Positions 785 through 60,648 are shown, counted from the first letter of the stretch. The stretch: 64,000 bases of DNA from Candidatus Sumerlaeota bacterium (GCA_026398535.1 JAPLSQ010000058.1:34339-98338); one strand, 5' to 3'. The notes: generated by a model not told the origin, from the letters alone. Made by a program: numbers and translations.

Positions 785-3268
785 ATGGCGCGCCGCATGA
801 TGGCGATGAGCATGCCTGAAACGTCGTGCGAAACGCCGTTCGAACGGCGTTATCTGGCCGGGATTGCGCTGTTTTCATGCTGCAACATCCTGGTGCAGCT
901 TCTGCTGACGCGGCTGTTCAGCGTGACGCTTGCCTATCATTTCGCGTTCATGGTGATCAGCATCGTCATGCTGACGCTTGCGGCGCCGGGCGCGCTGATC
1001 TTCGCGTTTCCGCGTGTTTTCAGTGCGCGGCGGTTCACCCCGCAGGCGGCGGGCGCGGCGCTGGCTTACGGCTGCCTGCTTTTCGCGGTGCTGGCCGTTT
1101 ACCTTGCGCTGAATTTGCGCGTGGCTTCGCCCCACGCGACGGAGTGGATGCGCCCCGAGGGCCGGCGAAACATCGCGATCATCTTCGCGATGTGGATCGT
1201 TCCGCCGCTGGCGGGCGGTTTTGTGCCTGCGCTCATGCTCACGCATTTTCCCCGGCGCGCGCCTTCCATTTACGGCTGTGATCTTGCCGGCGCGGCTGCG
1301 GGCGGGCTGCTTTTCATGGGAATCATGAAACTGTTTTCCGGGATCACGGCGATCATTCTGGCTGCGGCGCTGTTGTGTGCCGCCGGGGCGGTCCTGGCGG
1401 GGCGCGTCCGTCCCCGCATCGCGCTGGCCGGTGTTGCCGCCGCGGCGCTGCTGTGCGTCTTTGCCGCCGCAAACGCCGCCATGCGGCCCCATGCGCCCGT
1501 GCGCATACGATACGCCAAGTATTATAAAGAACCCGAACCGCTCATCGAGCAATGGTCGCCCATCTCGCGCGTCACGGTATTCGGCGCAGCCGCCATGCTT
1601 CCCCTCAAACCCGACATCGGTTTCGGCTGGGCCATGAGCAAAAACTACAAGGGGCCGCCAGCGCGCGAGTTGTGGATGGAGCAGGACGCCGCGGCGGGCA
1701 CTCCTATCACCGCGTGGGACGGCGTCACGACCTCCGGCGTGGAGCATGTGCTGTGGGACATCACTTCCATCGCACATCACGTGACCCGGCCGCAAAGCAT
1801 GTTTGTCATCGGCGCCGGCGGAGGACGCGACATCCTCGCGGGCATCCTCGCGGGCGCGCGCGAAATCCGCGGGGCAGAGATGAACCCAGCCAGCTTCAGC
1901 ATCGTGCGCGACGACCTTTCAAGCTTCACCGGCAGGCTCTATTCAAATCCGCGCGTCAGGATCATCCACGACGAGGGCCGCGCCACGCTGCGCGCGGGCG
2001 GGCAGAATTACGACATGATACAAATCTCGCTCGTCGACTCGCAGACAGCTTCAGCCGCCGGAGCGCTGGTTTTCGTGGAAAACCTGCTCTACACGCGCGA
2101 GGCGTTCGAAACATACCTCGGCCATCTGACAGCCGGCGGGGCGGTCTCCATCTCATGGTATTTCATCGGGACGCCGCCCGGAATGCTTTACCGCATGCTC
2201 ATGGCGCCCGCCGACGCCCTGAGGCGCAAGGGAATCGCGAACCCCATGGCGCACATCCTGCTGTTCCGAAACGGAATCGGCGCAACTTATCTTGTCAAGC
2301 GCGCGCCGTGGCGGCCCGACGAGGTTGACCGCGCGCGCGCGGAATCCAAAAGGCTGGGATTTGACCTGATCATGGACGCACAGTCGCTTCCGGCTGATCG
2401 CGACCTTGCCGACATCGTGACAAATCCCAAGGCGCTCATGGCGCGCTACCCGCTCAATCTGAGCGCGCCCACAGATGATTCGCCGTTTGTGTTTCAGCTT
2501 GAGAAATGGGACACCGATCCGGCGAAGGTGTCGCCCGATCTGCGGGCGAACCTTGTGGGCACGCGCGTGCTGCGCCCGCTTCTGTGGCTCATGGCGGCGG
2601 CCAGCGCCGTTTTGATCCTGCTGCCGCTGGCGTGGCGGACGCTTCTGGCGCGCCGCGGCGGACACGGCGGCCCGCCTCCGATCGCGGCGCCCGCCTCGCT
2701 GGCATGGCCCGCCATCGCCGTCGCGGGCGGTTGCGGCATGGGCTACCTCGTGGCCGAACTCGCGCTGATGCATCTCGGTTCGCTCATCGTCGGATATCCG
2801 GTTTACGCGCTTGTGCTGACGCTGGTCGCGCTGCTGCTGGGCAGCGGGGCGGGATCGGCGTTCAGCGGCAGATATGATCCGGCGCGGCTGGCGCGCTCGC
2901 TCGGCTGGATCATGATTGTCCTGGCCGGTGTCATTGCCGCGATGCCGCCCTTGCGCCCTGCCATACAGGACGCCGCGGCTGCGATGCCGTGGGCCGGACG
3001 CGCGTGCATGATTTTTGGCGTTTGTTTCGTGACGGGTTTCTTCATGGGAATGCCGTTTCCGACGCTGATGCGTCTTGTGGATCGTTCAGGCGCCGGAGGG
3101 CTCCTGCCCTGGTTGTGGGGGCTTAACGGCATGGCCGGCGTGATGTCGTCGATCGTCGTGATGTGCATCGCCGTTTTTTCCGGCTACTCGACGGCCATGT
3201 ATTTCGCCGCGGGATGTTACGTGCTCGTTGCGGCGGGATTCGCTGTCATGGCCGCGCGGCGCGCGTAA
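785..3268 (+). CDS. polytopic membrane protein with central spermidine-synthase-like (class I SAM-fold) domain
   Basis: 827-aa ORF; hydrophobic helices at both ends; central VIGAGGGRDI (GxGxG) and MIQISLVDS resemble fused membrane/spermidine-synthase-like proteins; several alternative ATGs 785-812. Confidence 0.55.
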   Translation: MARRMMAMSMPETSCETPFERRYLAGIALFSCCNILVQLLLTRLFSVTLAYHFAFMVISIVMLTLAAPGALIFAFPRVFSARRFTPQAAGAALAYGCLLFAVLAVYLALNLRVASPHATEWMRPEGRRNIAIIFAMWIVPPLAGGFVPALMLTHFPRRAPSIYGCDLAGAAAGGLLFMGIMKLFSGITAIILAAALLCAAGAVLAGRVRPRIALAGVAAAALLCVFAAANAAMRPHAPVRIRYAKYYKEPEPLIEQWSPISRVTVFGAAAMLPLKPDIGFGWAMSKNYKGPPARELWMEQDAAAGTPITAWDGVTTSGVEHVLWDITSIAHHVTRPQSMFVIGAGGGRDILAGILAGAREIRGAEMNPASFSIVRDDLSSFTGRLYSNPRVRIIHDEGRATLRAGGQNYDMIQISLVDSQTASAAGALVFVENLLYTREAFETYLGHLTAGGAVSISWYFIGTPPGMLYRMLMAPADALRRKGIANPMAHILLFRNGIGATYLVKRAPWRPDEVDRARAESKRLGFDLIMDAQSLPADRDLADIVTNPKALMARYPLNLSAPTDDSPFVFQLEKWDTDPAKVSPDLRANLVGTRVLRPLLWLMAAASAVLILLPLAWRTLLARRGGHGGPPPIAAPASLAWPAIAVAGGCGMGYLVAELALMHLGSLIVGYPVYALVLTLVALLLGSGAGSAFSGRYDPARLARSLGWIMIVLAGVIAAMPPLRPAIQDAAAAMPWAGRACMIFGVCFVTGFFMGMPFPTLMRLVDRSGAGGLLPWLWGLNGMAGVMSSIVVMCIAVFSGYSTAMYFAAGCYVLVAAGFAVMAARRA

Positions 3269-4186
3269 TCACCGGTCAGCGAGTACGCCATCAGGCCTGA
3301 GCAGATCCGCGATCTGTTTTTCCGCGGCGGTCATGAGGGTGTTGTGGTCGGCGCCCGCGACGGGCCGCAGCGTGATCATTGTTGGATGACGCCCGGAAAG
3401 CTCCTTTGACATCCGGAAGGGCACGATGTCGTCTGCCGTGCCATGCAGGATGAGCACCGCCGGCGGATCCGCGCGCGAGGCCAGCCCGGCCAACCGCGCG
3501 CGGTTGTCATAGCGGTCGCGCAACAGATTGCACAGCGGCCATCCCACCGACAGCCGAGCCATGTCCAGCAGGCTCGTGAACGGCGCGAGCAGGACGACCT
3601 GCTTCACGGGATGCCCCGCCGCAAAATCCAGTCCCGTGGCCGAGCCAATGGAGAATCCGAGAATGTTGAGGCCGGTTTCGAGCGCGGTGAGCGGACAATG
3701 GAGATGATCCGCGAGCGCGCGGAACGCCGCTTCGGACGACTCGCGGATTGTCCCGCGCCGCGCCGCGCCTTCACATTTTCCGTAACCCGGATAATCCATG
3801 AGCAGATAGCCCGCGCGCGCGCCGCGCGCAGCCTCAACCGTGTCCAGCCAGTCGAGCGCCACCGACGCGTTGCCCGAAAATACCGCCCACAAGCGACCGG
3901 GCGGCTTGTCAGACCCGTCCATTGGAGGTATGTAGAATGCCGTCTGCGCGCCCTGCGATGTCCTGTAATTCAGCTCAACCGTGCCGCGCGGCAGACCGCG
4001 GGCATACGATGGATCGTAGCGCCTGGGAAAATAAATCATTTTCTGCTGAAAGGCGAACGCCATGCACGACATCAGCAAGAAAAATCCGATGATAATTGTC
4101 ACGATCATGCGCAAAAGTCTTTTCAACAAAGGAACAATCGCAAGCCCGAATGCGGGATTTGGCGTCGGGGAAAGATGATTGGTCAT
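3269..4186 (-). CDS. alpha/beta-fold hydrolase with N-terminal membrane anchor
   Basis: GFSIGS nucleophile elbow, LILHGTADDIVP, N-terminal TM helix; last 8 codons (PDGVLADR) are the reverse complement of repeat A at 3272-3295. Confidence 0.7.
   Translation of the reverse strand: MTNHLSPTPNPAFGLAIVPLLKRLLRMIVTIIIGFFLLMSCMAFAFQQKMIYFPRRYDPSYARGLPRGTVELNYRTSQGAQTAFYIPPMDGSDKPPGRLWAVFSGNASVALDWLDTVEAARGARAGYLLMDYPGYGKCEGAARRGTIRESSEAAFRALADHLHCPLTALETGLNILGFSIGSATGLDFAAGHPVKQVVLLAPFTSLLDMARLSVGWPLCNLLRDRYDNRARLAGLASRADPPAVLILHGTADDIVPFRMSKELSGRHPTMITLRPVAGADHNTLMTAAEKQIADLLRPDGVLADR
3272..3295 (+). repeat. 24-mer repeat A, single copy
   Basis: exact CCGGTCAGCGAGTACGCCATCAGG between convergent stops (TAA 3266-3268 on +, TGA 3269-3271 on -). 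Confidence 0.95.
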
Positions 4187-12371: not shown

Positions 12372-13412
12372 ATGAATAAATACGCCAAATCATCAGCTAA
12401 CGCGACCGCCATTTGCCTGACCGCGGGAGTGATCTTTATTGCGGCGCTGGCGCAGGGAACAACCGGCACACTCCATTCCGCGTATAAGGGACAAGGCGAA
12501 GAGCCGACCACAGTCGCCCTGGGGATTTTCGTCCTCGACATTATGCAGATCGACTGCGCCGAGCAAATGTTCACCGCCGACATTTATGTCGAAGCGCACT
12601 GGTATGATCCGCAACTGGCGCATGAGGGCAAGCCGTTGTTCAAACCAATGGACAGCATATGGCACCCGCAACTTCAGGTACTGAACCAGCTCTCGGTGGT
12701 CCGCACGCTGCCCGAGCATCTTCAGATCATGAGCGACGGCCTTGTGATTTTGCGCCAGCGGGTGTTTGGCAATTTCTCCCAGCCGCTGGAATTGCGGTCG
12801 TTTCCGTTCGACCAGCAGGTTCTATCCATCACTTTTATCGCTTCAGGGCTTCTTACTCGTAATGTGCAGATTTTACCTCTCACGGTGGATGGAGTCTCAC
12901 GGACGGCGATCAGCCGCGCATTTTCGCTCCCCGACTGGGATATCACGAATTTTCATTACACGGTGGGCTCGCGCAAGTTCTTTGACGGCAGCGCCAGCAT
13001 GCCCATCATGATAGTCAATATAAACGTTGACCGACGCCAGGGTTACTACATTCTCAAGGTGCTGATCCCCCTTCTGCTGATCGTGTTCATATCATGGATC
13101 ACCTTCTGGCTTGCGCCCGACAATGTCGGCGTGAACATCTCCGTGCCGATGACTTCCATGCTCACGCTTGTGGCTTACCGGTTCACCATCGGGGGGTTGC
13201 TGCCAAGGGTGTCGTATTTCACACGCATGGACGCGTTCATCCTGTCATCAATGTTTCTCGTGTTCGCGGTGCTGGTGTATGTGGTGACCGTGGCGTCGAT
13301 GGTGAAGCATGGCCATGAGGCAAAGGCGTTAAAAATGCGCTGGTGGGGGCGCATGATTTTTCCGCTCTGCATCGTGGTGGTGGTGGTGTGGACGCTGTAT
13401 TTCACCTTCTGA
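12372..13412 (+). CDS. prokaryotic pentameric ligand-gated ion channel (GLIC/ELIC-like)
   Basis: signal/anchor, beta-rich ectodomain with HWYDPQLA and RSFPFDQQ (Cys-loop-equivalent FPFD motif, no Cys pair), then YYILKVLIPLLLIVFISWITFWL (M1) and three more TM helices. Confidence 0.75.
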   Translation: MNKYAKSSANATAICLTAGVIFIAALAQGTTGTLHSAYKGQGEEPTTVALGIFVLDIMQIDCAEQMFTADIYVEAHWYDPQLAHEGKPLFKPMDSIWHPQLQVLNQLSVVRTLPEHLQIMSDGLVILRQRVFGNFSQPLELRSFPFDQQVLSITFIASGLLTRNVQILPLTVDGVSRTAISRAFSLPDWDITNFHYTVGSRKFFDGSASMPIMIVNINVDRRQGYYILKVLIPLLLIVFISWITFWLAPDNVGVNISVPMTSMLTLVAYRFTIGGLLPRVSYFTRMDAFILSSMFLVFAVLVYVVTVASMVKHGHEAKALKMRWWGRMIFPLCIVVVVVWTLYFTF

Positions 13413-17184: not shown

Positions 17185-17245
17185 CATGGAGAACACGCCC
17201 CCCCCTGACAAACACGCCCCCCCCTGACAAACACGGAGAAACACG
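17185..17245 (+). repeat. composite repeat filling the whole glgC-lysA spacer
   Basis: CATGGAGAACACG-C8-TGACAAACACG-C8-TGACAAACACGGAGAAACACG, then lysA ATG 17246. Confidence 0.9.
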
Positions 17246-18601
17246 ATGGAACATAATAGAAGAGATTGGGATTGGCATACCTCCCCCTTGGATTTTAACG
17301 GCCTTGACAGCATTGCCGCGAAAGTTGGCACCCCATTCTGGCTATATGACGCAGGGACGCTGAAGCGGCGCATCGGCGCGGTCAAGCGCGTGGCCGCCGA
17401 GGGCGGCGTGATGGCGCGTTACGCGATGAAAGCCTGTTCCGCCACGCGCGTCGTGCGCGAGATGCTCGCCAACGGCATCTGGATCGACGCCGTGTCGGGC
17501 AACGAGGTCGTCCGTGCCATCCGCGCGGGCGCCGCGCCGGGACAATCGCCACCGGTTGTCGTCCTCACGGCTGATGTTTTTCGCGACAACGCCCTCGACG
17601 CGATCATGCAATACGGCATCCTGCCGAACATCGGTTCGCCCGGAATGCTGGACGAACTGGCGCGCGCTGGCTACAAGGGCAACATCGCAATACGCATCAA
17701 TCCCGGTTTCGGCCACGGTCATGTGAACGCCTGCGACACGGGCGGTCCGAGTTCCAAGCACGGCATCTGGTTCAGTCAGGCGGAAGAAATCGCGCGCCAG
17801 GCGGCGCTCCACGCGATGAAGGTCGTCATGTTGCACGCCCACATCGGCAGCGGCCCGCAAATGGAGGAGCTTCTGGCAAATCTGCGGCGCCTGGCAAACG
17901 AGTTTGCGCGAACCGCACCCATCTTTCCCGAACTCGAAGCCTTCAGTTTCGGCGGAGGCATTCCCCATTCCTACCATGAGGAAAACCCCGAAAAAGCCCT
18001 CAACGACGAAATCGCCCCGCTCGGTCCGCTGTTCCACGAGGTTGTGAAGCGTCTTCGCGAGACAACGCGGCGCGAGGTGCGCGTCGAAATCGAACCGGGA
18101 CGTTACTTCGTCGCTCCCTGCGCGAAACTTGTCGCCCGCGTGACCGACATAAAGAAAACCGAACCCCGGTCAGCGAGTACGCCATCAGGCGAGAAAGGCG
18201 GGGGGCAGACATTTATCATGGTGGATGCGGGGTTTGTCGATCTCCTGCGCCCGGCGATGTACGGCTCCTACCACAGGATTTCCACGTACGGCCCCAGCAA
18301 ATCCGGCCCCCCCCCTGGCGCGCGCCCCGTGGTTGTGGCCGGACCGCTGTGCGAATCCGGCGATGTGTTCACACGCGACGCTTCCGATTTTATCGCGCCC
18401 CGCGATCTGCCGCTTCCCGCCAAGGGCGATCTGCTCGTCATCCACGACGCCGGCGCCTATGGTTACGCCATGAGCTCAAATTACAACTCCGTCGGCCGCG
18501 CCCCGCAGGTTTGGATCGGCGAGGATGGCGCGGCCGCGCTCATCTCCCGCCGCGAAACCGTGGACGACATCCTGCGGCTGGAGACCGAAACAACGCTGTA
18601 A
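17246..18601 (+). CDS. lysA: diaminopimelate decarboxylase
   Basis: YAMKACS (PLP-Lys), GFGHGH, FGGGIP, EPGRY, MVDAGFVDLLRPAMYGSYH, CESGD; carries in-frame copy of repeat A. Confidence 0.93.
   Translation: MEHNRRDWDWHTSPLDFNGLDSIAAKVGTPFWLYDAGTLKRRIGAVKRVAAEGGVMARYAMKACSATRVVREMLANGIWIDAVSGNEVVRAIRAGAAPGQSPPVVVLTADVFRDNALDAIMQYGILPNIGSPGMLDELARAGYKGNIAIRINPGFGHGHVNACDTGGPSSKHGIWFSQAEEIARQAALHAMKVVMLHAHIGSGPQMEELLANLRRLANEFARTAPIFPELEAFSFGGGIPHSYHEENPEKALNDEIAPLGPLFHEVVKRLRETTRREVRVEIEPGRYFVAPCAKLVARVTDIKKTEPRSASTPSGEKGGGQTFIMVDAGFVDLLRPAMYGSYHRISTYGPSKSGPPPGARPVVVAGPLCESGDVFTRDASDFIAPRDLPLPAKGDLLVIHDAGAYGYAMSSNYNSVGRAPQVWIGEDGAAALISRRETVDDILRLETETTL
18166..18189 (+). repeat. 24-mer repeat A inside lysA (frame 2: RSASTPSG)
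   Basis: exact 24-mer; position verified by codon counting from 17246 (R308 codon at 18167). Confidence 0.95.
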
Positions 18602-18612
18602 TTCCCTGCCAG

Positions 18613-18677
18613 CCCCCCCCCGAAAGAACCATACGGAGAACACGGAGAACACGGAGAACACGGAGAACACGGAGAAC
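18613..18677 (+). repeat. C9 run plus 5 x 9-mer ACGGAGAAC
   Basis: C9 at 18613-18621; ACGGAGAAC x5 at 18633-18677, directly abutting recX ATG 18678. Confidence 0.95.
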
Positions 18678-19313
18678 ATGCTGATTCTGTCGCTCACATA
18701 CAGAAAGCGAAAGCCGGCATCTGTCGTTGAAGTTGTTTTCAATGACGGACAGGTATTGGATTTGGATCCGGAACTGGCCGTCAAATTTCAACTTGCGGCG
18801 GGCGAAGACATTTCGCAGCAGGCAATGGACGAGTTGCGGAACGCGCAGGAGAGTCTCACGGCGCGCCGTCGGCTCGTGCGTTATATGTCATTGCGCCGCA
18901 AGAGCGGGCGCGAGGCTTCGGATTATCTTCTGCGGGCGGGCTTCAGTCCGGACGCTGTCGAGTCGGCCATGGCGGGCGCGCGCGAACTGGGGCTGATCGA
19001 CGATGCGCGTTTTGCTGCGGCGTACACGCGCACGCAGCAGCGCGCAACGCACAAGGGTCCGCGCGCCATCCGGCACGAATTGATGATGCGCGGCGTCAAC
19101 CCCGGCATCGCGGCGCAAACAGTCGCGCCATCGGCGACGCCAGAGACGCAGAAGGAGCACGCGCGCGCAGCCGCGGTAAAAAAGGCCGCCAGCCTGCAAA
19201 AAGAGCCGCCCAACAAGGCGCGCGCAAAGCTTTATGCCCATCTTCTCAGAAAAGGCTACGACCCGGACGTGGCATCACAGGTGACGCATGAACTATTCAA
19301 TGAAAAAGAATGA
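18678..19313 (+). CDS. recX: recombination regulator RecX
   Basis: RRRLVRYMSLRRKSGREASDYLLRAGF, helical repeat architecture, about 210 aa; ORF upstream of 18678 is repeat read-through. Confidence 0.7.
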   Translation: MLILSLTYRKRKPASVVEVVFNDGQVLDLDPELAVKFQLAAGEDISQQAMDELRNAQESLTARRRLVRYMSLRRKSGREASDYLLRAGFSPDAVESAMAGARELGLIDDARFAAAYTRTQQRATHKGPRAIRHELMMRGVNPGIAAQTVAPSATPETQKEHARAAAVKKAASLQKEPPNKARAKLYAHLLRKGYDPDVASQVTHELFNEKE

Positions 19314-19345: not shown

Positions 19346-19436
19346 CCGGAGAACACGGACAAACATGGACAAATACGGACAAACACGGAAACCGGTCAGC
19401 GAGTACGCCATCAGGCGGAGAATGGCAGGCATCATG
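19346..19436 (+). repeat. decamers + repeat A + ATGGCAGGCATCATG module
   Basis: CCGGAGAACACGGACAAACATGGACAAATACGGACAAACACGGAAA, A at 19392-19415, then CGGAGA-ATGGCAGGCATCATG (19422-19436; same 15-mer at 35520-35534). Confidence 0.92.
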
Positions 19437-20387: not shown

Positions 20388-21815
20388 ATGCAGGACTCGA
20401 TCCAGTTTGAACCCGATTTCACACCGGGCGCCAAGATAAAGGTTGTGGGTGTCGGCGGCGGCGGCACGAACGCCGTTGACAGCATGGTGGAATCGGGGCT
20501 GAAGGGTGTGGATTTTTTTGTGATCAACACGGACGCGCTGGCGCTGTCGCGCAGCAAGGCTCAGACGAAGATTCAGATCGGCCAGAACATCACGCACGGG
20601 CGCGGTTCGGGCGCCGATCCGGCCATTGGCGAACAGGCCGCGGTCGAAGCCAAGGATGTCATCCAGGAGAATCTTAAAGGCGCGGACATGATTTTCATCA
20701 CGGCGGGTCTGGGCGGAGGCACAGGCACGGGCGCGGCGCCCGTCATCGCCGAAATTGCCAGGGACATGGGCATTCTGACCGTGGCCGTCGTCACGCGCCC
20801 CTTCCGGTTCGAGGGCCCCCAACGCATGAACAAGGCCAACCAGGGGCTCGACCGTCTGCGCCAGTTTGTCGACACCTGCATCATCGTTTCCAATGACCGT
20901 CTCATCGAGGTCGTCGGCCCAAAGACCCCGCTCAAGGAAGCTTTCAGTGTGGCCAACAACGTGCTGACGATGGGTGTGCAGAGCATCAACGACCTGATCA
21001 GTGTTCCCGGTCTGATCAACGTGGATTTTGCCGACGTCCGCACGATCATGAACGAAACCGGCGGCGCCGTGATGGGCGTGGGCGTGGGCAAGGGCGAGAA
21101 CCGCGCCACCGAGGCCGTGAAAAAGGCATGCGCCAGCCCGTTGCTGGACAAAATTGTCATCGACGGAGCGCGCGGCGTGCTGATCTGCGTGACAGGGGGC
21201 GAGGACATGACCCTCAACGAGATCAACGAGGCGACGACCATGGTATACGAGGCCGCCTCGCCCGACGCGAATATCATTTTTGGCGCGGTGGTTGACGAAA
21301 AGCTCAAGGACGAAATCCGCGTCACAATCATCGCCACAGGCTTGGAGGACAAGCATCTGCGCACCGGCGCGCCCATCCCCGACGACTCGCGCATGGGTAT
21401 CGGCCCGGGGCCGAGCAAGGAAAGAATCGAGTCGATGTTCACGCCGGCCACGGAGCGCCGTTCATCGGCCGCCGCGAAAACGGCGGAGGCGGTTGCGGCA
21501 AAGAAGGAAAGCGCCGTTGCCGCCGCATCGGATGCCGCGCACAATGTCGCGGCCGCCGCGCCAAAATCCGACGAGCACGTCAATTCGTTCGATTTCAAAC
21601 GACCCGACAACCCGTTGCGCTCGAGTTCAGCGTTCGCCGCGGCCACGGAAACCGGTCAGCGAGTACGCCATCAGGCGGACGAACACGGACAAACACGGAC
21701 AAACACGGAGAACACGGCTGACAAACTCGAGGAGAAATCCGCCGCGGGCGAACTGCGCGAGGACGATCCCGACATCCCCGCATTCCTAAAACGGCGCAAG
21801 AACCTGTTCGAGTAG
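20388..21815 (+). CDS. ftsZ: cell division GTPase FtsZ
   Basis: IKVVGVGGGGTNAV, GGGTGTGAAPVIA, NDRL, VDFADV; C-terminal peptide DIPAFLKRR; AGGAG RBS upstream; linker carries repeat A plus decamers. Confidence 0.97.
   Translation: MQDSIQFEPDFTPGAKIKVVGVGGGGTNAVDSMVESGLKGVDFFVINTDALALSRSKAQTKIQIGQNITHGRGSGADPAIGEQAAVEAKDVIQENLKGADMIFITAGLGGGTGTGAAPVIAEIARDMGILTVAVVTRPFRFEGPQRMNKANQGLDRLRQFVDTCIIVSNDRLIEVVGPKTPLKEAFSVANNVLTMGVQSINDLISVPGLINVDFADVRTIMNETGGAVMGVGVGKGENRATEAVKKACASPLLDKIVIDGARGVLICVTGGEDMTLNEINEATTMVYEAASPDANIIFGAVVDEKLKDEIRVTIIATGLEDKHLRTGAPIPDDSRMGIGPGPSKERIESMFTPATERRSSAAAKTAEAVAAKKESAVAAASDAAHNVAAAAPKSDEHVNSFDFKRPDNPLRSSSAFAAATETGQRVRHQADEHGQTRTNTENTADKLEEKSAAGELREDDPDIPAFLKRRKNLFE
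21644..21716 (+). repeat. CACGGAAA + repeat A + 4 decamers inside ftsZ linker
   Basis: A at 21652-21675 (frame 3: GQRVRHQA, verified by codon count G423 at 21654), then CGGACGAACACGGACAAACACGGACAAACACGGAGAACACGG. Confidence 0.95.
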
Positions 21816-21870: not shown

Positions 21871-22599
21871 TTGCGATTGCTTGACCTGACACTTCCGGCT
21901 CCAGCGGAGAATCTCGCGCTGGAGGAGGCGTTGCTGGAGGAGACGGAAGCGGGGCAGGGCGGTGAAACGTTGCGGTTCTGGGAGAGCGGCGTCTTCTTCG
22001 TTGTGATGGGCGCGGGTTGCCATGCCAGCGCCGACGCAAACCTTGAGCGCTGTGCCGCGGACGGCATTGCCGTGCTGCGCCGGTGCAGCGGGGGCGGAAC
22101 CGTCCTGCAGGGGCCGGGATGCCTGAACTGCGCGCTCATTCTTGACGCGCGCGCGCGCCGCGAGCTGTCGTCAATCGCTGAAACGAACACGCATGTTCTC
22201 GGGCGTCTTGCGCGCGCGCTGGAATCCGTATGCCCCGGCTTGCGCCGTGAGGGCATCAGCGACCTGGCGGTGGATGGAATGAAAATATCGGGCAGCGCCC
22301 AGAAGCGCAAACGCCGCTTTATCCTGTTTCACGCCACGCTCCCGCATGATTTCGATCCTGCGCTTGTGGCGCTCTATCTGCGCGAGCCGGCGCGCCAGCC
22401 GGAGTATCGCGCGGCGCGCCCCCACGCCCGATTCATGCGCAACATCAGCGCGCCGCCCGTCCGCCTGAAAGAACTTATCACCGCCGAGTGGGACGCCTCG
22501 GCCCCCCCCCCCAAGACGCCGTGCGCGCCGCCGCTCGAGCGCATGCGCGGACTCGTTGATTCCAAATACGCGCGCGACGCGTGGAACCTCATGTTCTGA
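21871..22599 (+). CDS. lipoate-protein ligase / octanoyltransferase family protein
   Basis: LRFWESGVFFVVMG, LRRCSGGGTVLQGPGCLNCALIL, KISGSAQKRKRR (catalytic-Lys context) typical of BPL_LplA_LipB domain; TTG start. Confidence 0.65.
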   Translation: MRLLDLTLPAPAENLALEEALLEETEAGQGGETLRFWESGVFFVVMGAGCHASADANLERCAADGIAVLRRCSGGGTVLQGPGCLNCALILDARARRELSSIAETNTHVLGRLARALESVCPGLRREGISDLAVDGMKISGSAQKRKRRFILFHATLPHDFDPALVALYLREPARQPEYRAARPHARFMRNISAPPVRLKELITAEWDASAPPPKTPCAPPLERMRGLVDSKYARDAWNLMF

Positions 22600-24030: not shown

Positions 24031-24131
24031 CGGGGCGTTGGGCGGGCGGGACGCCCGCGCTCCCAGGACAAACACGGACAAACACGGACAACCACGGACA
24101 ACCAAGGACACGGATGAAATACCCGCACCAA
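24031..24131 (+). repeat. hairpin module + decamers + 33-nt ATG module
   Basis: CGGGGCGTTGGGCGGGCGGGACGCCCGCGCTCCCAGGACAA, ACACGGACAA x2, CCACGGACAA, then CAACCAAGGACACGGATGAAATACCCGCACCAA (24099-24131), identical to 45042-45074. Confidence 0.93.
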
Positions 24132-25484: not shown

Positions 25485-25622
25485 GAACACGGACGACCAC
25501 GAACAACCACGGACAACCATAGACAACCACAGACAACCACAGACAACCACAGACAACCACAGACAACCACAGACAACCACGGGCAACCACGGGCAACCAC
25601 GGACGAAGAAAGAGGCGGCGGA
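25485..25622 (+). repeat. phased 10-mer array (about 13 units) in divergent intergenic region
   Basis: GGACGACCAC GAACAACCAC GGACAACCAT (AGACAACCAC)x6 (GGGCAACCAC)x2 GGACGAAGAA, then AGAGGCGGCGG tail similar to 28811-28824. Confidence 0.95.
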
Positions 25623-33208: not shown

Positions 33209-33288
33209 GAAATATGCTCCGTTTTACTATCGATGTGTTTTAAATAACGGGCATTGCACAAGAAAAAGCCAGTTAAAACAGATTCATT

Positions 33289-33337
33289 GACATGGAGAAC
33301 ACGGACAAGCACGGACAAACACGGACAAACACGATGG
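33289..33337 (+). repeat. decamer block between two - strand genes
   Basis: GACATGGAGAACACGGACAAGCACGGACAAACACGGACAAACACGATGG; + orientation although both neighbours are on the - strand. Confidence 0.93.
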
Positions 33338-34949: not shown

Positions 34950-37248
34950 GATGAATCCCAAACCCGCGCGCGCCGCGACAATAACGGCGCTTGTCATTTA
35001 TGCGGTTGCGGTGCTGTTCGTGCTTGCATGGGCGCAGACACCCATTCTCGCGCCGTCAAACATCAACCGCACACAAGCTGCGCTCGAACCCCTGCGCTCG
35101 GTCAGCGATTCGGTTTTTATGTTCAGTCAGGGGGGGCTCATGTCCAACAACAACATGCCCTGGCGCGCTCTCGGCATTTTTGCGCTGTGGTTGTGCGCGC
35201 TCAGTTCGCTGGGCATTGGTGTGTCGCGCGGCATTTTCCCGGCAGGGCTTCTGTGGGAGGAACGCCTGCTCTTCGGTTTCGGCGCCGGATACATCATCAC
35301 CGGGCTTGCCGTGCTGTTTGCCGGTCTGGCTGGTTATGCCACACCCGACTCCGCCGCGCTCATCATTCTGCTTGCGCTGCTTGCGGGGCTTTGGCTCTGC
35401 AGACGCCAGATCGCCGGCATCCTGCGGCGGCGTCCGCCACCCCACACGGACAACCACGGAGAACACGGAGAACACGGACAAGCACGGACAAACACAGACA
35501 AACACGGAGAACACGGAGCATGGCAGGCATCATGGCGCGCTCCGCCCCCCCCCCGGCCGGACAACTGGCGGGTTGCCACGCGGATACTCCTTTTTTTCCT
35601 GTGCGCATTTATGGCCGCCGGATTTCTTTACGCCATGACCCCGCCCATTCAGTCCGACGCGATGCGTTATCATCTTGCGGCGCCCCAGGAGTGGCTCAAA
35701 ACGGGGCGCATCACTTTGTTGCCGCTTAACGCCTTCAGCAATTTCCCTTTTTTGCCCAACATGCATTATATGATTGCTCTGGCATGGGATGGGCCAGAAG
35801 CGTCGCAGATGATGCACTTCGCCATGCTGGCGCTTGTTACCGCGGGACTGTGCGGCTTCGTGCGCCGTTTCGTCGAGCCGCTTTATGGTTCGCCGCCTCC
35901 GCGCTCCGCCCCTTTCATCCGGCTTGTTGTCGCAACCATGTATGCCGGGGTTCCCGCGGTGTTCATTGTGGCGTCATGGCCGTTTGTGGACCAGATGTTC
36001 GTGTTTTTCGTCTTTGCGTCGCTTTACTCCATGCTTCTGGCATTGCGGAGCGGGTCACTGGCGGCTTATGTGTTCACCGGTGTGATGATGGGCGGGGCGC
36101 TTGGCTCGAAATACACGGCGCTTATTTTTTTCGGTGTTCTCATGGCGCTTGCCCTGATTGAGCTTTTCGTTGTCCGCCCCCCCCCCGACGCCTGGCGCGC
36201 TGGCGGCGCGCCGCCGCTAATGGCTCGCGCGCGCCGCTTCGCCGTGTTCGTTTTTGTTGCCGTCCTTGTCGGGTCTCCATGGTTCATAAAGAATGTCGTT
36301 TTGACCGGCAATCCCGTTTATCCTTTTGCCAACCAGCTTTTCGGCGGCGGCGACTGGTCAGGGGCCAATGCCAGGCTCTATGAAAGCAAGATGCGCGAAA
36401 AAGGTGAGACGCCCGCGCTGACGGCGTTTTTCAGATCGCCGGTCAAGGCAACCTTTGAGTGGACGCGTTATGAAGGGCAATATCCAGGCGGGGCGCTGGC
36501 GGGCGCGCTCATTGCCGCCGCCGCCGCCGTTGTCATGCTCATTCTGCGGTACCCCCCCCGTGAAAAACGCGCCGGGGCGCTCTATTACACTGCCGCCGCC
36601 GCCGCGCTCTACTATGCCTCATGGTTTGTGAGTTATCAGAGCAACCGCATGCTGGCGCCGTTTTTTGTGATGGCGCTGCCGCTGGCCGCCGTGTTTTTTC
36701 ATGAGTGCCGCATCCTGTCGCGCGGCGCTCTGGCTCTGGCGCTGGCCGTGGCATTGCTGTGCGCCGCCCACGGCATGTTATGGGCGCTCCAGTGGGAATA
36801 CCTGCGCGCCGTGCCGCCCTCCATGTCCTACTTCAACGGTTCGATGTCGCGCGACGAGTATCTTGTGCGCGGACTGAACTTCCGCCAAGCCTATCTTTAT
36901 CTCAACGAGCGTGTCAAACCGGATGAAAGGGTGCTGCTGATTGGCGAGCATCGCATCTACGGGGCGCAGTTCAACGCGATCTGGAGCGACTGGTTCGACA
37001 CGCCCGCCGTGCTCCACATCATGCGCGCCAACAGCATCTCCAGCCCGGCGGCGCTTGAGGGCGCCCTCAGGCTCGCGGGCGTGCGATGGATCCTCGTCAA
37101 TGAAACGGAGATCGCGCCTCAGAACGAATTGTACTGGAGACCGCGATTCACGGCCGAAGAATGGAAACTGCTGCAGACATTCCTGGAAATCCAGTCGCGC
37201 AACCGCATCAACATCCCTCCGGGCGTGTCGGTGATCAGGCTCCCCTGA
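34933..37248 (+). CDS. polytopic GT-C-like (family 39/83-like) glycosyltransferase; possibly two genes fused through a repeat
   Basis: 771-aa ORF, more than 12 hydrophobic helices; residues 171-207 are repeat-encoded; segment after the repeat (TM helix then IQSDAMRYHL loop) looks like a canonical GT-C N-terminus. Confidence 0.45.
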   Translation: MAEDHEMNPKPARAATITALVIYAVAVLFVLAWAQTPILAPSNINRTQAALEPLRSVSDSVFMFSQGGLMSNNNMPWRALGIFALWLCALSSLGIGVSRGIFPAGLLWEERLLFGFGAGYIITGLAVLFAGLAGYATPDSAALIILLALLAGLWLCRRQIAGILRRRPPPHTDNHGEHGEHGQARTNTDKHGEHGAWQASWRAPPPPRPDNWRVATRILLFFLCAFMAAGFLYAMTPPIQSDAMRYHLAAPQEWLKTGRITLLPLNAFSNFPFLPNMHYMIALAWDGPEASQMMHFAMLALVTAGLCGFVRRFVEPLYGSPPPRSAPFIRLVVATMYAGVPAVFIVASWPFVDQMFVFFVFASLYSMLLALRSGSLAAYVFTGVMMGGALGSKYTALIFFGVLMALALIELFVVRPPPDAWRAGGAPPLMARARRFAVFVFVAVLVGSPWFIKNVVLTGNPVYPFANQLFGGGDWSGANARLYESKMREKGETPALTAFFRSPVKATFEWTRYEGQYPGGALAGALIAAAAAVVMLILRYPPREKRAGALYYTAAAAALYYASWFVSYQSNRMLAPFFVMALPLAAVFFHECRILSRGALALALAVALLCAAHGMLWALQWEYLRAVPPSMSYFNGSMSRDEYLVRGLNFRQAYLYLNERVKPDERVLLIGEHRIYGAQFNAIWSDWFDTPAVLHIMRANSISSPAALEGALRLAGVRWILVNETEIAPQNELYWRPRFTAEEWKLLQTFLEIQSRNRINIPPGVSVIRLP
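35443..35554 (+). repeat. decamers + ATGGCAGGCATCATG + C10 run inside GT-C-like ORF
   Basis: CACACGGACAACCACGGAGAACACGGAGAACACGGACAAGCACGGACAAACACAGACAAACACGGAGAACACGGAGC; ATGGCAGGCATCATG 35520-35534; C10 35545-35554 (codon-verified). Confidence 0.93.
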
Positions 37249-37281: not shown

Positions 37282-38820
37282 ATGGAACCATCAACAGCGC
37301 AGGAAACCATTTCGGCCTCGGCAACGGTCTTGCGTTTAACGGCCATTGTTCTGCTTGTGGCGCTCAACGGTTTCTTTGTGGCAGCCGAGTTTGCCATCGT
37401 TCGCGTGCGTGCGACGAGAGTCAAAGCGCTTGCCCGGCGCGGATCGCACATCGCAATAATCGCCGAGCACATGCTTGGGCACCTCAACGCCTACCTGAGC
37501 GCCACGCAACTCGGCATAACGATCGCATCGATCCTGCTCGGCTGGGTGGGTGAATCAACCCTGCGCGTGAGCATCATCGGTCCTGCTTTCAAAGCGCTCA
37601 ACATCACCAACCCAACCTTGCTGCACGTTGTGTCGTTCCTTTTCGGCACGGGGCTTATCGTTTTCCTGCATGTTGTCCTTGGCGAACAGGCGCCCAAGGC
37701 GCTGGCCATCCAATTTCCTGAAATCACGACAATGTGGATCGCCTATCCCCTGAAGTGGTTTTATTACCTCCTGTATCCGATCATCACCGTGCTCAACAAT
37801 GCCTCGCTGCTGATGCTGCGGCTTGTTGGCATTCAACCGGCAACAGAGCATGACATGGGCCATACGGAGGAGGAACTGCGCATGCTCTTCTCGGCCTCCA
37901 CCCGCTCAGGCGTCCTGACCACGGAAAAGCGCGTCCTGCTGGAAAACGTGTTCGATCTTTCCCAGCGCATCGTCCGCCAGATCATGGTGCCGCGCACCCA
38001 GGTGGCCGCCTTCAACCTCCAGAAAACTCTCGCCGACAATATGCGCATCGCGGCGCTGACCGCCCACAGCCGCTACCCGCTCATCGACGGCGATCTCGAC
38101 CATGCCGTGGGACTCATCCACATGAAGGACCTTTTCTGGCAGCTCAAGGAGATGGAAGCCCCGCACCCCCCCCTGAGCGCCGAAGGCGGCGAAGACACTG
38201 GCGGCGCCGCGCCCGACGACCTCAACCCCATGATCTCTGGCGGCGACGTGGCGCTCAACCAGCCTGCGACCGGCGCCGAATTCCTGCGAAAGATCGCCCG
38301 CGAAGTCCCCTACGTGCCCGAAACGATGCGCATCGACAACCTTCTGCGCGAACTCCAGCAGAAGCACGTGCACCTGGCCATGGTCGTGGATGAATACGGA
38401 GGAACATCCGGGCTTGTCACCTTTGAAAATGTCATCGAGGAAATCGTGGGGGAGGTGCAGGACGAGTTCGACCAGGAGACACCGCTTATCCGCCGGATCA
38501 ACGACACGGAATTCGCCATCGACGGCTTCGCGCCGCTCACCGAAGTCAACGACGCTCTGGGATGCGACCTGCGCGCTGAAGATGCCGACACCATCGGCGG
38601 CTACATCCTCGCGGAACTTGGCCGCATGCCCGTGACCGGCGACCGGCTGAGCGCCGAGGGCATCGAACTCACCGTCAGCGAAATGCAACGCCACGGCATC
38701 CAGCGCATCCACGCGCGGCTGCTCGGCCAGGCCGCGCCCGGCGACGAACACGGAGAACACGGAGAACACGGAGAACACGGACAAACACGGACAAACACGG
38801 ACAAACACAGAGAACCATGA
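37282..38820 (+). CDS. CNNM/CorC-HlyC-family transporter (DUF21-CBS pair-CorC_HlyC)
   Basis: LNGFFVAAEFAIVRVR (DUF21), CBS pair, GGTSGLVTFENVIEEIVGEVQDEFD; last about 25 codons (DEHGEHGEHGEHGQTRTNTDKHREP) are repeat-encoded. Confidence 0.88.
   Translation: MEPSTAQETISASATVLRLTAIVLLVALNGFFVAAEFAIVRVRATRVKALARRGSHIAIIAEHMLGHLNAYLSATQLGITIASILLGWVGESTLRVSIIGPAFKALNITNPTLLHVVSFLFGTGLIVFLHVVLGEQAPKALAIQFPEITTMWIAYPLKWFYYLLYPIITVLNNASLLMLRLVGIQPATEHDMGHTEEELRMLFSASTRSGVLTTEKRVLLENVFDLSQRIVRQIMVPRTQVAAFNLQKTLADNMRIAALTAHSRYPLIDGDLDHAVGLIHMKDLFWQLKEMEAPHPPLSAEGGEDTGGAAPDDLNPMISGGDVALNQPATGAEFLRKIAREVPYVPETMRIDNLLRELQQKHVHLAMVVDEYGGTSGLVTFENVIEEIVGEVQDEFDQETPLIRRINDTEFAIDGFAPLTEVNDALGCDLRAEDADTIGGYILAELGRMPVTGDRLSAEGIELTVSEMQRHGIQRIHARLLGQAAPGDEHGEHGEHGEHGQTRTNTDKHREP
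38746..38816 (+). repeat. decamer block forming 3' end of CNNM gene and 5' junction of next gene
   Basis: GAACACGGAGAACACGGAGAACACGGAGAACACGGACAAACACGGACAAACACGGACAAACACAGAGAACC, then ATGA (38817-38820). Confidence 0.95.
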
Positions 38821-40208
38821 GCCAGCCAATGACACCCGCACAACTTCCGCCGCTGAAGAAGCGCGTCGAGTCCGTCGACGCTTTTCGCGGCTTCACGATC
38901 TTTGCCATGATTTTCGTGATCATGGTTGCCGGATACCGCAACCTGCCGCTGACCTTTCCGCATTTTGGCAGCGCGCCGGTGTCGACCTTCAAACACGCCA
39001 GCGAGGACGCCGCCCCCCCCCTACCGCGTGAATGGGCCTTCTGGCAGGGGCTCAAAACATCGGACCCCCCCCTTATTTATTATGCCGGCAAGCTTCTGGC
39101 CTGCGACACAAACTCAAGCTGCACGGTGGCGGTGCTTGGCGACAAGGACACGACGCTGGCCGTGGTGAGCGGGGCGCGCATCCGCGCCGCCAAGCCGCTC
39201 CGGCCCGGCGAGGAGGTGATCGCTCGGTCGCTCGCTCCGGCCCCGCCGCGATCCGGCGTCATGGGCGAACCGGTCAGCGAGTACGCCATCAGGCCGGACA
39301 GCTTCACCATGCAGGGAACCGGCAACGGATGCACATTCTGCGATCTTGTGGCGCCGTTTTTCGTGTTCATTGTCGGCGTGTGCATCCCGCTCAGCAAGCG
39401 CAAGCGCGGCGCCGAATGGTGGCGTCATGTGGGTTTCCGCACTCTCAGCCTCATCCTCGCCGGCGTCCTTTACATTTCGCTCATCCTCAAGCTTTCGTGG
39501 TGGTGGGGCATTTTGCAGGCCATCGGCGCGGCTTATTTCATGGGCGCGGTGGCGATGTTCCTGCCCGTCTGGGGGCGCTGGACAGCGATTGCTGTCATTG
39601 CGGCATTTCACGCATGGATGTCGTGGCATGTTCCTTGGTGGCTGGAGCTGGGCGACAAGACGCGCCCGTTCTTCACGATCGCCAACCTTCACGGCGACCC
39701 GCTTCGCCCCCTCACCGTGCATTGCACGCCCTGGGCGTCGATCTCATGGGGAATCATCGCCATCGCGGGCACGCTCATCGGCGACGCCGTCGCCGGCCGT
39801 GAACCGCGCGCCATCATCCGCCAGTGCCTTGTTGTCGGCGTCATCCTCACCGCCGCTGGCTGGCTGCTTCATATCTATCAGGCGCCGATGAACAAGGACT
39901 ATGTCTCGCCCGCCTATTCCGTGTTCACATCGGGGTTGGGCGCGCTGTGCTACCTCGTGTTTTACCTGCTCATTGACGCGGCGGGCCTGAAACTGTGGGC
40001 GTGGCCGTTCACCGTGTTCGGCGCGAACGCGCTGCTGGCGTATTTCATGCAGCCCGTTGTGCGCATCTTCTTCCAGGCGCTGGGACTGTACCCCTTCTTC
40101 ACCTCGCACGCCGGCTGGAACGGCGTGCTGTGGGGGCTGATCTGGACAACCTGCCTGTGGGTCGTTGTGCTTTGGTGCAACAAAAAAAACATCTATTGGA
40201 AATTATGA
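38817..40208 (+). CDS. DUF5009/DUF1624 acyltransferase-family membrane protein (heparan-alpha-glucosaminide N-acetyltransferase-like)
   Basis: RVESVDAFRGFTIFAMIFV N-terminal motif, about 10 TM helices; long first loop carries two C8-9 runs and repeat A. Confidence 0.6.
   Translation: MSQPMTPAQLPPLKKRVESVDAFRGFTIFAMIFVIMVAGYRNLPLTFPHFGSAPVSTFKHASEDAAPPLPREWAFWQGLKTSDPPLIYYAGKLLACDTNSSCTVAVLGDKDTTLAVVSGARIRAAKPLRPGEEVIARSLAPAPPRSGVMGEPVSEYAIRPDSFTMQGTGNGCTFCDLVAPFFVFIVGVCIPLSKRKRGAEWWRHVGFRTLSLILAGVLYISLILKLSWWWGILQAIGAAYFMGAVAMFLPVWGRWTAIAVIAAFHAWMSWHVPWWLELGDKTRPFFTIANLHGDPLRPLTVHCTPWASISWGIIAIAGTLIGDAVAGREPRAIIRQCLVVGVILTAAGWLLHIYQAPMNKDYVSPAYSVFTSGLGALCYLVFYLLIDAAGLKLWAWPFTVFGANALLAYFMQPVVRIFFQALGLYPFFTSHAGWNGVLWGLIWTTCLWVVVLWCNKKNIYWKL
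39270..39293 (+). repeat. 24-mer repeat A inside CDS (frame 1: PVSEYAIR)
   Basis: exact 24-mer; P152 codon at 39270 by codon count. Confidence 0.95.
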
Positions 40209-40376
40209 CAATATCGTCATTCCGCGCGATCAACAAGCCCCCCCCTGATTATTTAGATGCGGGAGAGATGCCCGCGATCCGATGCTCCGCCCCCCCCCCC
40301 CCGAAAATAAGCGCGCCTCCCGCCAATTTACACGGGCTTGCGCTGTATCAGGTTCATCAACGGCGCCGCGTCGCCC

Positions 40377-42479: not shown

Positions 42480-43391
42480 ATGGCGGTTGTCGTGGTCTGT
42501 CTCGGAACGGAGAACCACGGACCCCCCCCTGAACCACGGACAACCACGGACATATCGGGTGTCAGGTTTGCGGTGACCAACTCGTGGCTGGAATGCTGTC
42601 TGCGCGATATCGCCGGCCCCCCCCCGCCTGACGCGGATGTGGCGCGTCTTTGTCCGCCGGGCTCGTGTCCGGGCCATTTTGACATAAAACCGGGCGACGC
42701 GGCTGTGCTTATGAAATGCCAGGCGCTGTTCCGGTTCGATTTTCAGAAATCTCTCGACGCCAGGATACAAGGTCTGCGCACCGAGGGTCCCGCAATCATA
42801 TCCATTCCTGCCCCCGATGGGCTGTGCATCCCGGATCGCTACCTTGAATCTTGCGAGTCAATTCATGATGAACTGGCAAGACTGGAACCCGGCAGGCGTG
42901 CGGTTTTCGATGCCGCGCTGACAGCCACACGCGCGCGGCTCTCGAGCCTGTCCGCGCAGGCGCATGCCACGATTGCGGATGCGCGGTTACCGGGCGTGCG
43001 CGTTGTTGTGTCGGGGCGCCAAGCCGCTTTCTGCCGATGGCTCGGATTGGACACGGTGAGCGCCTATTCCGGCGGGGAGGCCGCGTCGCCCGCGCAACTG
43101 CGGGCGCTTGTAGAGAAAGGGCGTGATGCCAGGGTGCGTTTCGTCATCACGAACCTGCAGGAGGGCCGGCAGATGGGCGAGGCGCTTGCCTATCATCTCG
43201 GCGCCCAAGTGGTCGTGTTCAGCAACTTCCCGGACATGACGAGTTCCCAGAACAGCTTCGACGCCCTGGTAAACATGAACATTCAGGCGCTGATCTCGGC
43301 CGCGGGCGCCATCAGGCACGGAAACCGGTCAGCGAGTACGCCATCAGGCGGACAAACACGGACAAACACGGACAGGCACGGAGAACCATGA
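42480..43391 (+). CDS. TroA/ZnuA-like metal ABC transporter substrate-binding protein (atypical, Cys-rich)
   Basis: VRFAVTNSWLECCLRDIAG...LCPPGSCPGHFDIKPGD...FRFDFQ follows the ZnuA pattern (v.tt..l.d....G...l...g.dpH.ye.p.d); start uncertain (see findings); 3' end repeat-encoded. Confidence 0.55.
   Translation: MAVVVVCLGTENHGPPPEPRTTTDISGVRFAVTNSWLECCLRDIAGPPPPDADVARLCPPGSCPGHFDIKPGDAAVLMKCQALFRFDFQKSLDARIQGLRTEGPAIISIPAPDGLCIPDRYLESCESIHDELARLEPGRRAVFDAALTATRARLSSLSAQAHATIADARLPGVRVVVSGRQAAFCRWLGLDTVSAYSGGEAASPAQLRALVEKGRDARVRFVITNLQEGRQMGEALAYHLGAQVVVFSNFPDMTSSQNSFDALVNMNIQALISAAGAIRHGNRSASTPSGGQTRTNTDRHGEP
42506..42551 (+). repeat. decamers with embedded C8-TGA module
   Basis: AACGGAGAACCACGGA-C8-TGAACCACGGACAACCACGGACA. 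Confidence 0.88.
43308..43387 (+). repeat. A 3' fragment + CACGGAAA + repeat A + decamers
   Basis: GCCATCAGG CACGGAAA, A at 43325-43348 (frame 2: RSASTPSG), CGGACAAACACGGACAAACACGGACAGGCACGGAGAACC, then ATGA. Confidence 0.95.
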
Positions 43392-45060: not shown

Positions 45061-45074
45061 AATACCCGCACCAA
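44961..45074 (+). repeat. decamers + repeat A + 33-nt ATG module
   Basis: CGGACAACCACGGAGAACACGGACAAGCACGGACAAGCACGGACGAACGAAGA, A at 45014-45037 (frame 3), CGGA, CAACCAAGGACACGGATGAAATACCCGCACCAA (45042-45074). Confidence 0.95.
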
Positions 45075-47268: not shown

Positions 47269-47288
47269 TTCTCAGAAACCCTCCTGTG

Positions 47289-47365
47289 TTCACACGAATT
47301 ATAATTTAGTGTGAATTATGCCGCCATCAAATTCTATTCACACGCTCCAGCCCGTTTGTGTGAAT
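47289..47365. promoter_or_regulatory. two inverted repeats TTCACAC-N13/14-GTGTGAA (candidate NikR operators)
   Basis: TTCACAC 47289-47295 / GTGTGAA 47309-47315; ATTCACAC 47336-47343 / GTGTGAAT 47358-47365; located between nikR and the divergent 47268 operon. Confidence 0.45.
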
Positions 47366-47406
47366 TAGAGGCATCGGCTGTCCTATACAGATTTAGGAGG
47401 CATCAG

Positions 47407-47829: not shown

Positions 47830-47830
47830 A

Positions 47831-56178: not shown

Positions 56179-60648
<4,470 letters not shown>

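Follow-up and report, generated by a model that had tools for sequence, protein, structure and literature searches.

The diaminopimelate decarboxylase gene lysA of a Candidatus Sumerlaeota genome carries, in frame within its coding sequence, an exact copy of a 24-nt repeat that recurs elsewhere in the surrounding DNA. We analysed a stretch of 64,000 nt (hereafter the window, to which all coordinates refer) and consider the lysA segment a likely passenger: one copy of a short repeat, both interspersed and tandem, that is specific to the lineage and tolerated as a short flexible peptide in a surface hairpin of the enzyme. The lysA copy is not a special case, since the same 24-mer lies in frame in ftsZ and in several other genes.

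The gene extends from 17246 to 18601 on the plus strand and forms an intact 451-aa ORF in which the residues invariant in the family are all present. Its assignment as a diaminopimelate decarboxylase (DAPDC) is supported by both family models and solved structures: the product matches TIGR01048 with an E-value of 4e-88 and 295.7 bits (about 2 bits short of the curated equivalog cut-off of 297.9) and the E. coli LysA structure 1knw with 1e-81, and its precomputed Pfam domains are PF02784 and PF00278. Every column that is invariant across a 27-sequence LysA alignment is retained, including K62, EPGR at 283-286 and CESGD at 369-373, and as far as sequence and predicted model allow, the 451-aa product has the catalytic and PLP residues and the fold of a DAPDC. 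The closest LysA homologues among 5.8 billion proteins are 65-66% identical and belong to Sumerlaeaceae, Verrucomicrobiota and Chthoniobacter MAGs, and the best match among GTDB representatives reaches at most 63% identity.

Within lysA the unit occupies 18166-18189 on the plus strand, where the window reads exactly CCGGTCAGCGAGTACGCCATCAGG. The unit is read in its frame 2 and contributes (P)RSASTPS(G), residues 307-315 of the protein. It begins at codon position 3, so that its first base completes a proline codon opened by two flanking bases (cc), its next 21 bases encode RSASTPS, and its last two bases form a glycine codon with a flanking c. Sequence and intact ORF therefore agree with an earlier note on this DNA, which had reported an exact 24-mer in frame in lysA, read as PRSASTPSG. 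In an alignment of the 120 best LysA matches, the window protein included, the spacing between the invariant residues D301 and D327 is 20 residues in 119/119 of the nearest homologues and 27 here. None of these orthologues has an equivalent long loop, and the insertion proposed in that note is thereby upheld; the size given for it (a loop of 18 residues against 6) is not, because the net gain amounts to 7 residues rather than 12. Relative to E. coli LysA the gap at this site comprises 13 residues, of which 6 are clade-wide and 7 are derived from the repeat.

The relatives share the loop D-V-K-x-T-x-(T/S)N-EKGxGxTF-MVD, and the clade thus already possesses a K-T-x-TN-EKGxGxTF hairpin, whereas the window protein reads D-I-K-K-T-E-PRSASTPSG-EKGGGQTF-MVD. 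The glycine-rich flank, which had previously been counted as part of the insert, has to be taken out of it, as EKGxG (here EKGGGQ) is ancestral to the clade. The nine residues PRSASTPSG stand in place of two, T/S-N, so that a nearly invariant Asn has been lost and the protein has grown by a net 7 residues rather than 8. Without the 24 nt the lysA loop would read KTEPEKG and fall one residue short of that in every relative, which argues against a simple insertion of exactly 24 nt into an ancestor of consensus sequence. Because we found no allele with an empty site and no close lysA relative (none above 66% identity in the 5.8 billion proteins or GTDB), we infer the insertion from distant orthologues only. 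The match might alternatively be coincidental, with an old lineage-specific loop extension merely resembling the repeat, and the loop is indeed longer clade-wide than in E. coli. However, the extra residues are absent from all 119 homologues and the segment is identical at 24/24 nt to nine other copies, for which chance matches number 0 even at 3 mismatches; we regard this explanation as refuted.

An AlphaFold2 (AF2) model of LysA, built on the homologue alignment (mean pLDDT 80.3, pTM 0.84), places residues 307-315 in the C-terminal beta domain, in the loop that joins strands 293-304 and 322-326, and resembles the E. coli DAPDC structures 1ko0 and 1knw with TM scores of 0.76-0.82. Mean pLDDT is 75 and 61 for the 10-residue blocks 301-310 and 311-320, respectively, below the values of the flanking strands. 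The model agrees with the earlier proposal that the insert sits in a surface loop of an intact LysA, and narrows the position down to a beta-hairpin loop within the C-terminal domain. The composition of PRSASTPSG, rich in Ser, Thr and Pro, suits a flexible loop of this kind. Since the conserved core of the enzyme is untouched, LysA with its insert is most likely still functional, and the consequence for lysA itself is probably small, namely a slightly longer surface loop.

The lysA allele has been recovered many times. At least 11 Logan contigs, assembled independently and originating in at least two studies (two run-accession prefixes), code for an identical 451-aa LysA. Freshwater and lake metagenomes account for the Logan runs containing this sequence. 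Across the repeat, the lysA contigs of four deep runs show neither a difference nor a 24-nt skip, and the same is true of a fifth run from another study; no allele lacking the 24 nt was found in the Logan contigs of 12 runs, an assembly product that drops rare variants. A second-strain MAG (GCA_037138735.1, contig JBAXHV010000010.1), with 99.7% nucleotide identity over 21 kb, has the lysA repeat at the same place and encodes a LysA that differs at 5 other residues. Furthermore, a 151-nt metatranscriptome contig covers 18124-18274 unchanged, although this library may hold carried-over DNA. Given the same allele in these assemblies, in the second strain and in the metatranscriptome contig, it is effectively excluded that the insert is an assembly artefact or is spliced out. 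Suspicion of an assembly or sequencing artefact, or of a decaying lysA pseudogene backed by a second copy, could be raised by the tendency of short-read assemblies to break at repeats, with contigs ending in arrays, and by a TIGR01048 score just below the cut-off. Against both stand the recurrence of the identical sequence across several runs and studies, two MAGs and an RNA library, the intact ORF with its invariant residues, the confident, DAPDC-like AF2 model and a search for a second lysA that found none within the 64-kb window. We therefore rate this explanation as very improbable and largely refuted.

The unit inserted in lysA belongs to a family whose members are exact. CCGGTCAGCGAGTACGCCATCAGG occurs 10 times in the window, always perfectly and always on the plus strand, where dinucleotide-preserving shuffles give an expectation of 0 in a search allowing up to 3 mismatches. 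The copies start at 598, 622 and 646 (a tandem triple), 3272, 18166, 19392, 21652, 39270, 43325 and 45014. Scanning of either strand for diverged copies, by Hamming distance of up to 8 and by gapped local alignment, yielded none above the shuffle maximum in the window, and the family can thus be described as 'exact or nothing'. Counted across the two strains, 12 units are 100% identical, and zero differences in 288 nt imply that the family is either young (about 1% divergence or less) or homogenised by conversion or selection. The exact 24-mer is absent from GTDB species representatives and from IMG/VR viral contigs, and the JGI metagenomes with an exact copy are represented by three short contigs from one sample. 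One variant unit, with a G>A substitution, was observed downstream of rpsG in a JGI contig. Many further contigs at the depth of this genome carry the repeats, which indicates that the family is genome-wide; if the copy that the second strain has just left of the window is included, about 71 kb contain 9 loci, and extrapolation of one locus per 8 kb would suggest several hundred loci.

With a length of 8 codons, the 24-mer contains no stop codon in any sense frame. We considered stop-freeness as a special property of the unit and rejected it, because 68% of random 24-mers drawn from the window likewise lack stops in all three sense frames; the property is permissive rather than remarkable. No palindrome, hairpin or inverted termini are present in the 24-mer, and it folds no more stably than shuffled sequence (z = 0.04 for a single unit, -0.61 for a run of three), in line with the earlier description of the repeat as non-palindromic. 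Likewise, no Rfam matches and no tRNAs were detected in the window.

Seven of the nine loci overlap ORFs, and the only purely intergenic sites are the array at 598-669 and the copy at 19392. The former consists of three exact 24-nt units in tandem on the plus strand, of which the second strain has two, and the latter (19392-19415, plus strand) lies downstream of decamer repeats in the 5' leader of a GDPD gene, whose start is probably the ATG at about 19422. All three sense frames of the 24-mer are used, and the antisense direction once. In frame 1 it encodes PVSEYAIR in a DUF1624/HGSNAT-like membrane protein (unit at 39270-39293, plus strand; ORF 38817-40208), where it falls in a length-variable loop directly ahead of a conserved GNGCTF block, and also in a secreted protein of 1474 aa, directly after the core of the signal peptide (second-strain contig 17924-17947, left of the window). 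Besides lysA, frame 2 (RSASTPSG) is found in the C-terminal tail of a ZnuA-like protein (43325-43348, plus strand; ORF 42480-43391), an ORF which also contains a partial copy of the 24-mer, CGCCATCAGG, at 43307-43316. Frame 3 (TGQRVRHQ) is read in the C-terminal tail of an ABC-3 permease (45014-45037, plus strand; ORF 44197-45060) and in the C-terminal linker of FtsZ (21652-21675, plus strand; ORF 20388-21815). In FtsZ the 24-mer is followed by about four decamer units at 21676-21717, and further downstream the frame continues into DIPAFLKRR, the conserved C-terminal peptide. Neither the ZnuA-like nor the ABC-3 ORF stops within the repeats; each ends beyond them in an ATGA overlap with the gene that follows, a methyltransferase gene in the case of the permease. 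The antisense copy (3272-3295, plus strand) begins 3 nt past the stop of a plus-strand ORF (785-3268); these 3 nt are the stop of an alpha/beta hydrolase ORF on the minus strand (3269-4186), and the reverse complement of the unit forms the last 8 codons of this gene, PDGVLADR, ahead of that stop.

Orientation is equally uniform. The loci lie on the same chromosomal strand in 9/9 cases (two-sided p ~0.004), and the copy running antisense to its host gene is no exception. The window also holds about 25 arrays of 9- or 10-nt units, which often flank the 24-mer; one of them is a T-less 9-nt tandem array with five units of ACGGAGAAC at 18633-18678 (plus strand), between lysA and recX. These decamers share the polarity of the 24-mer (62 versus 2), even in arrays between minus-strand genes. 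No similar arrays were seen beside lysA in 80 distant genomes. Derivation of the 24-mer from decamer units was considered and rejected, as the match by eye at 11/30 positions is at the level of chance.

Four copies of the 24-mer sit within T-less arrays of 9/10-nt units; in all four, ACG(G/A)A(A/G)A precedes and CGGA follows the unit, with CGGA or CGAA on both sides. The lysA unit has CGA on either side, with ACC intervening on the 5' side. This is suggestive at most of a 3-4-nt target duplication, which other copies do not have, and the flanks of the 12 copies contain no consistent target-site duplication. The 5' flanks are A-rich (CGGAAA, CGAAGA, GCGAA) or AT-rich (AATATA, TAATCA, TATTAA, AAATTA, ATTAAT) in a genome of 61% G+C, which suggests a weak target preference.

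Comparison of the two strains, which differ by 0.2-0.3% substitutions, gives an indication of the pace of change. Their indels fall mostly in decamer arrays (+/-9 and +20 nt), in poly-C tracts and in the 24-mer array (3 versus 2 units), and elsewhere consist of only two 3-nt indels near 13.8 kb. The dispersed 24-mer sites are all occupied and identical in both strains. Arrays thus change by unit slippage on the time scale separating the two strains, and new dispersal is not visible on it.

An alternative reading of these data is that the 24-mer is a functional cis-element, such as a binding site for a protein or RNA, kept exact by selection, in which case the lysA copy would be retained for a function in, for example, regulation or chromosome organisation. 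Complete identity of all units with no decayed copies could indeed reflect functional constraint rather than a passive passenger, and the strict polarity as well as the frequent position of copies in leaders and trailers adjoining start and stop codons would fit such a role. However, regulator binding sites are normally degenerate and avoid coding sequence, whereas here all reading frames are represented, at structurally permissive protein sites, as would be expected of random insertions that have been filtered. Furthermore, the 24-mer has neither predicted structure nor an Rfam match, and its lack of differences would also fit a young family, given how little the strains themselves have diverged. 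We therefore consider the cis-element unlikely, though less so than either of the explanations dismissed above.

According to the passenger explanation favoured here, copies would have arisen by insertion rather than convergence, as members of a non-palindromic, strand-polar family comprising single dispersed units and tandem arrays, which may be young or may be kept uniform by homogenisation. Copies would usually settle in intergenic leaders and trailers, often inside T-less decamer arrays. As 8 codons without a stop in the sense frames, a copy landing in a gene would add only a short peptide, and such copies would survive at permissive sites, that is in loops, in disordered linkers, behind a signal peptide or in C-terminal tails. 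The lysA unit would be transcribed and translated, with PRSASTPSG at the start of the beta-hairpin loop. Chromosomal polarity is strict even against local transcription, and likewise for the decamers, which argues for a strand-specific step and against classical cut-and-paste transposition; dispersal to new sites probably involves such a step, for instance targeting of single-stranded DNA at replication forks or an RNA- or ssDNA-templated process. No transposase, reverse transcriptase or recombinase was found among about 20 window ORFs scanned against Pfam (a set ending at about 60 kb), nor among the Pfam labels precomputed for the loci that span about 7-50 kb, and a RAYT or Y1 transposase is similarly missing from the scanned ORFs and precomputed labels, together some 70 kb of the genome. 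GC skew switches at 44-52 kb, and dnaA is absent among the genes scanned at 45-60.6 kb, which span this switch. The genes of that interval are ordinary, with functions in transport and two-component signalling and a nuclease-family protein.

More tentatively, we put forward the possibility that the 24-mer represents an undescribed class of ultra-short mobile insertion (8 codons, stop-free, without inverted repeats and strand-polar) that is copied by a dedicated templated mechanism. Candidates for the latter could include, for example, an abundant ssDNA or RNA oligonucleotide incorporated at forks, or a reverse-transcriptase or HUH-type enzyme. Being codon-neutral, such a unit would colonise essential genes like lysA and ftsZ as easily as intergenic DNA. 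We regard this idea as speculative and it is considerably less probable than the passenger reading itself, although it ranks above the cis-element.

Rickettsia palindromic elements (RPE) measure about 100-150 bp and are palindromic, each family encoding a conserved peptide in one frame. In behaviour they provide the closest parallel, being dispersed repeats that sit in frame in unrelated housekeeping genes and add a peptide at positions compatible with the fold (PMC10969869). The 24-mer likewise occurs in frame within unrelated genes, namely lysA, ftsZ, the DUF1624 gene, the gene of the 1474-aa secreted protein and three C-terminal tails, among them those of two transporter proteins. The RPE analogy drawn in the earlier note holds for this behaviour, and is stronger than that note could know, since ftsZ and other genes carry the same 24-mer in frame. 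It does not extend to structure: the unit has 24 nt and no palindrome or hairpin, it is read in each of the three sense frames and in one case antisense, and its identical copies also line up head-to-tail in arrays. A length of 24 nt against about 100-150 bp excludes RPE membership whatever the sequence. By analogy, the 24-mer acts like a very small RPE yet is structurally different, and appears as a short repeat that colonises genes in frame.

The MIRU elements that Supply et al. reported in 1997 are said to be direct tandem repeats located between the genes of operons, in one orientation, open in frame and overlapping stop and start codons; their units are reportedly 46-101 bp long and degenerate, with a unit number that varies between strains. 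The head-to-tail array at 598-669 with its strain-dependent 3 or 2 units, and the ATGA overlaps at the ORF tails, are MIRU-like in this respect, whereas a unit of 24 nt that is exact and occurs singly inside genes departs from MIRU in both size and degeneracy. We know of no MIRU insertion inside an enzyme loop.

REP/BIME sequences and MITEs are built on imperfect palindromes or terminal inverted repeats, usually with target-site duplications, and occur in both orientations; REP/BIME units cluster with alternating orientation and go with a RAYT gene that mobilises them. Unlike MITEs, the 24-mer has no terminal inverted repeats and no consistent target-site duplication, and unlike REP/BIME its arrays are head-to-tail in a single orientation and without a palindrome; it thus falls outside both groups. 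These groups, the latter including Correia and ERIC elements, are nevertheless also short, non-autonomous, high-copy intergenic repeats, some of which occasionally generate in-frame fusions (PMC10969869). The exactness of the 24-mer and its tolerance in genes recall USS/DUS, Chi and KOPS, and its strand polarity recalls Chi and KOPS; the difference is that the 24-mer adds 24 nt as extra codons and forms tandem arrays. USS/DUS, Chi and KOPS are exact short motifs over-represented genome-wide and tolerated in coding regions, strand-polar in the case of Chi and KOPS. They are 8-12 nt long (about 30 nt at most for USS, if the degenerate flank is counted), arise by point substitution and do not form arrays. 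Our literature search found no described equivalent of the 24-mer family, the one useful source being a general review of MITEs and RPE (PMC10969869).

The 24-mer family would represent a second, structurally unrelated case of in-frame repeat colonisation, here in a free-living, uncultured freshwater bacterium. Such colonisation of essential genes is known mainly from RPE. The unit is so small, at 24 nt without a palindrome, that no usual transposition model obviously applies. If the 24-mer is truly mobile, it would point to a novel mechanism of short-DNA insertion and to a cheap natural route to variation in protein loops and tails; if ultra-short insertion is moreover templated, the 24-mer would act as a generator of such variation. 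In practical terms, short-read assemblies are interrupted at the repeats and predicted proteins come out longer, so that tails encoded by repeats are to be expected when genomes of this lineage are annotated. Finally, the LysA and DUF1624 proteins of the host MAG, which is of freshwater origin, are closest to those of Sumerlaeota and Verrucomicrobiota.

T-less tandem arrays with units of 9 or 10 nt (GGACAAACAC / GGAGAACAC), the decamer family that often flanks the 24-nt repeat, occur at approximately 25 sites in the window, for example at 18633-18678, 25488-25604, 35444-35517, 38743-38815 and 47199-47261. Most end in a GGAG unit resembling a Shine-Dalgarno sequence and lie directly upstream of + strand start codons, and the core motif is found 62 times on the + strand versus twice on the - strand. 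The arrays at 24051-24130 and 33288-33337 are both located between - strand genes and nevertheless retain the + orientation, so it is the chromosome strand, and not the direction of transcription nearby, that this polarity tracks. The number of units in the arrays differs between the window and the second strain (MAG GCA_037138735.1), and the ACACGGA unit may resemble the GGA binding motif of CsrA-type proteins.

The repeats are free of stop codons, and open reading frames in the window read through them and acquire repeat-encoded C-terminal tails. This is the case for the ZnuA-like ORF at 42480-43391 and the ABC-3 permease ORF at 44197-45060, with tails such as ...GQTRTNTDRHGEP* and ...RRTRTSTDKHGRTKTGQRVRHQADNQGHG*, both of which end in an ATGA overlap with the following gene. 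A methyltransferase ORF starting at 45057 likewise extends into a decamer array at ~45670 (region ~45680-45760). The beginning of this gene lies in one copy of an exact 37-nt duplicate (24095-24131 and 45038-45074), which takes in the final stretch of a decamer array together with a start codon and the opening six codons (MKYPHQ). The copy with its start codon at 45057 opens the genuine methyltransferase gene, and the one at 24114, with a - strand gene on either side, leads into an ORF of just 39 codons. This duplicate suggests that segments consisting of a repeat and a gene start are copied elsewhere. Four tandem copies of the 24-nt unit were identified at 977-1072 of the JGI metagenome contig Ga0194044_10114168, approximately 40 nt 3' of the stop codon of rpsG (ribosomal protein S7); one of these carries a G>A change and is the sole variant among all units seen.

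Neither the 24-mer nor the decamer family is present to the right of ~49.6 kb in the window, and GC skew changes from negative to positive across ~44000-52000. This pattern may mark a replication landmark, or else a border where regions with different histories meet; a scan of the genes at 45-60.6 kb revealed ordinary functions and no dnaA. An ORF of the PD-(D/E)XK nuclease family (PF13366, PDDEXK_3) at 49415-49951 is flanked by 44-nt direct repeats of 93% identity (49454-49497 and 50002-50045), the first of which falls inside the long call of this ORF; the gene call in the second strain is shorter (129 aa). Gene and repeats together may constitute a small inserted cassette.

Homopolymeric C tracts of 8-13 nt were found at seven positions, namely 17198-17205, 17217-17224, 18306-18314 (within the lysA coding sequence, SGPPPG), 18610-18620, 22501-22511, 36176-36185 and 40290-40302. 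Several differ in length by 1, 2 or 9 nt between the window and the second strain; such tracts may be prone to slippage or phase variation, or may instead reflect errors in the MAG consensus sequences. Directly 5' of the Shine-Dalgarno sequence and start codon of lysA, at 17192-17235, a 19-nt unit is perfectly repeated in tandem (AACACGCCCCCCCCTGACA x2.3).

The genes for two large hybrid histidine kinases, at 51563-54901 and 56179-60648, share a 300-nt segment with 97% identity (53042-53341 and 58198-58497), an indication that a PAS-domain segment was recently duplicated or gene-converted. A bacterial homologue of pentameric ligand-gated ion channels (Neur_chan_LBD and Neur_chan_memb) is encoded at 12372-13412 amid sugar-metabolism genes.
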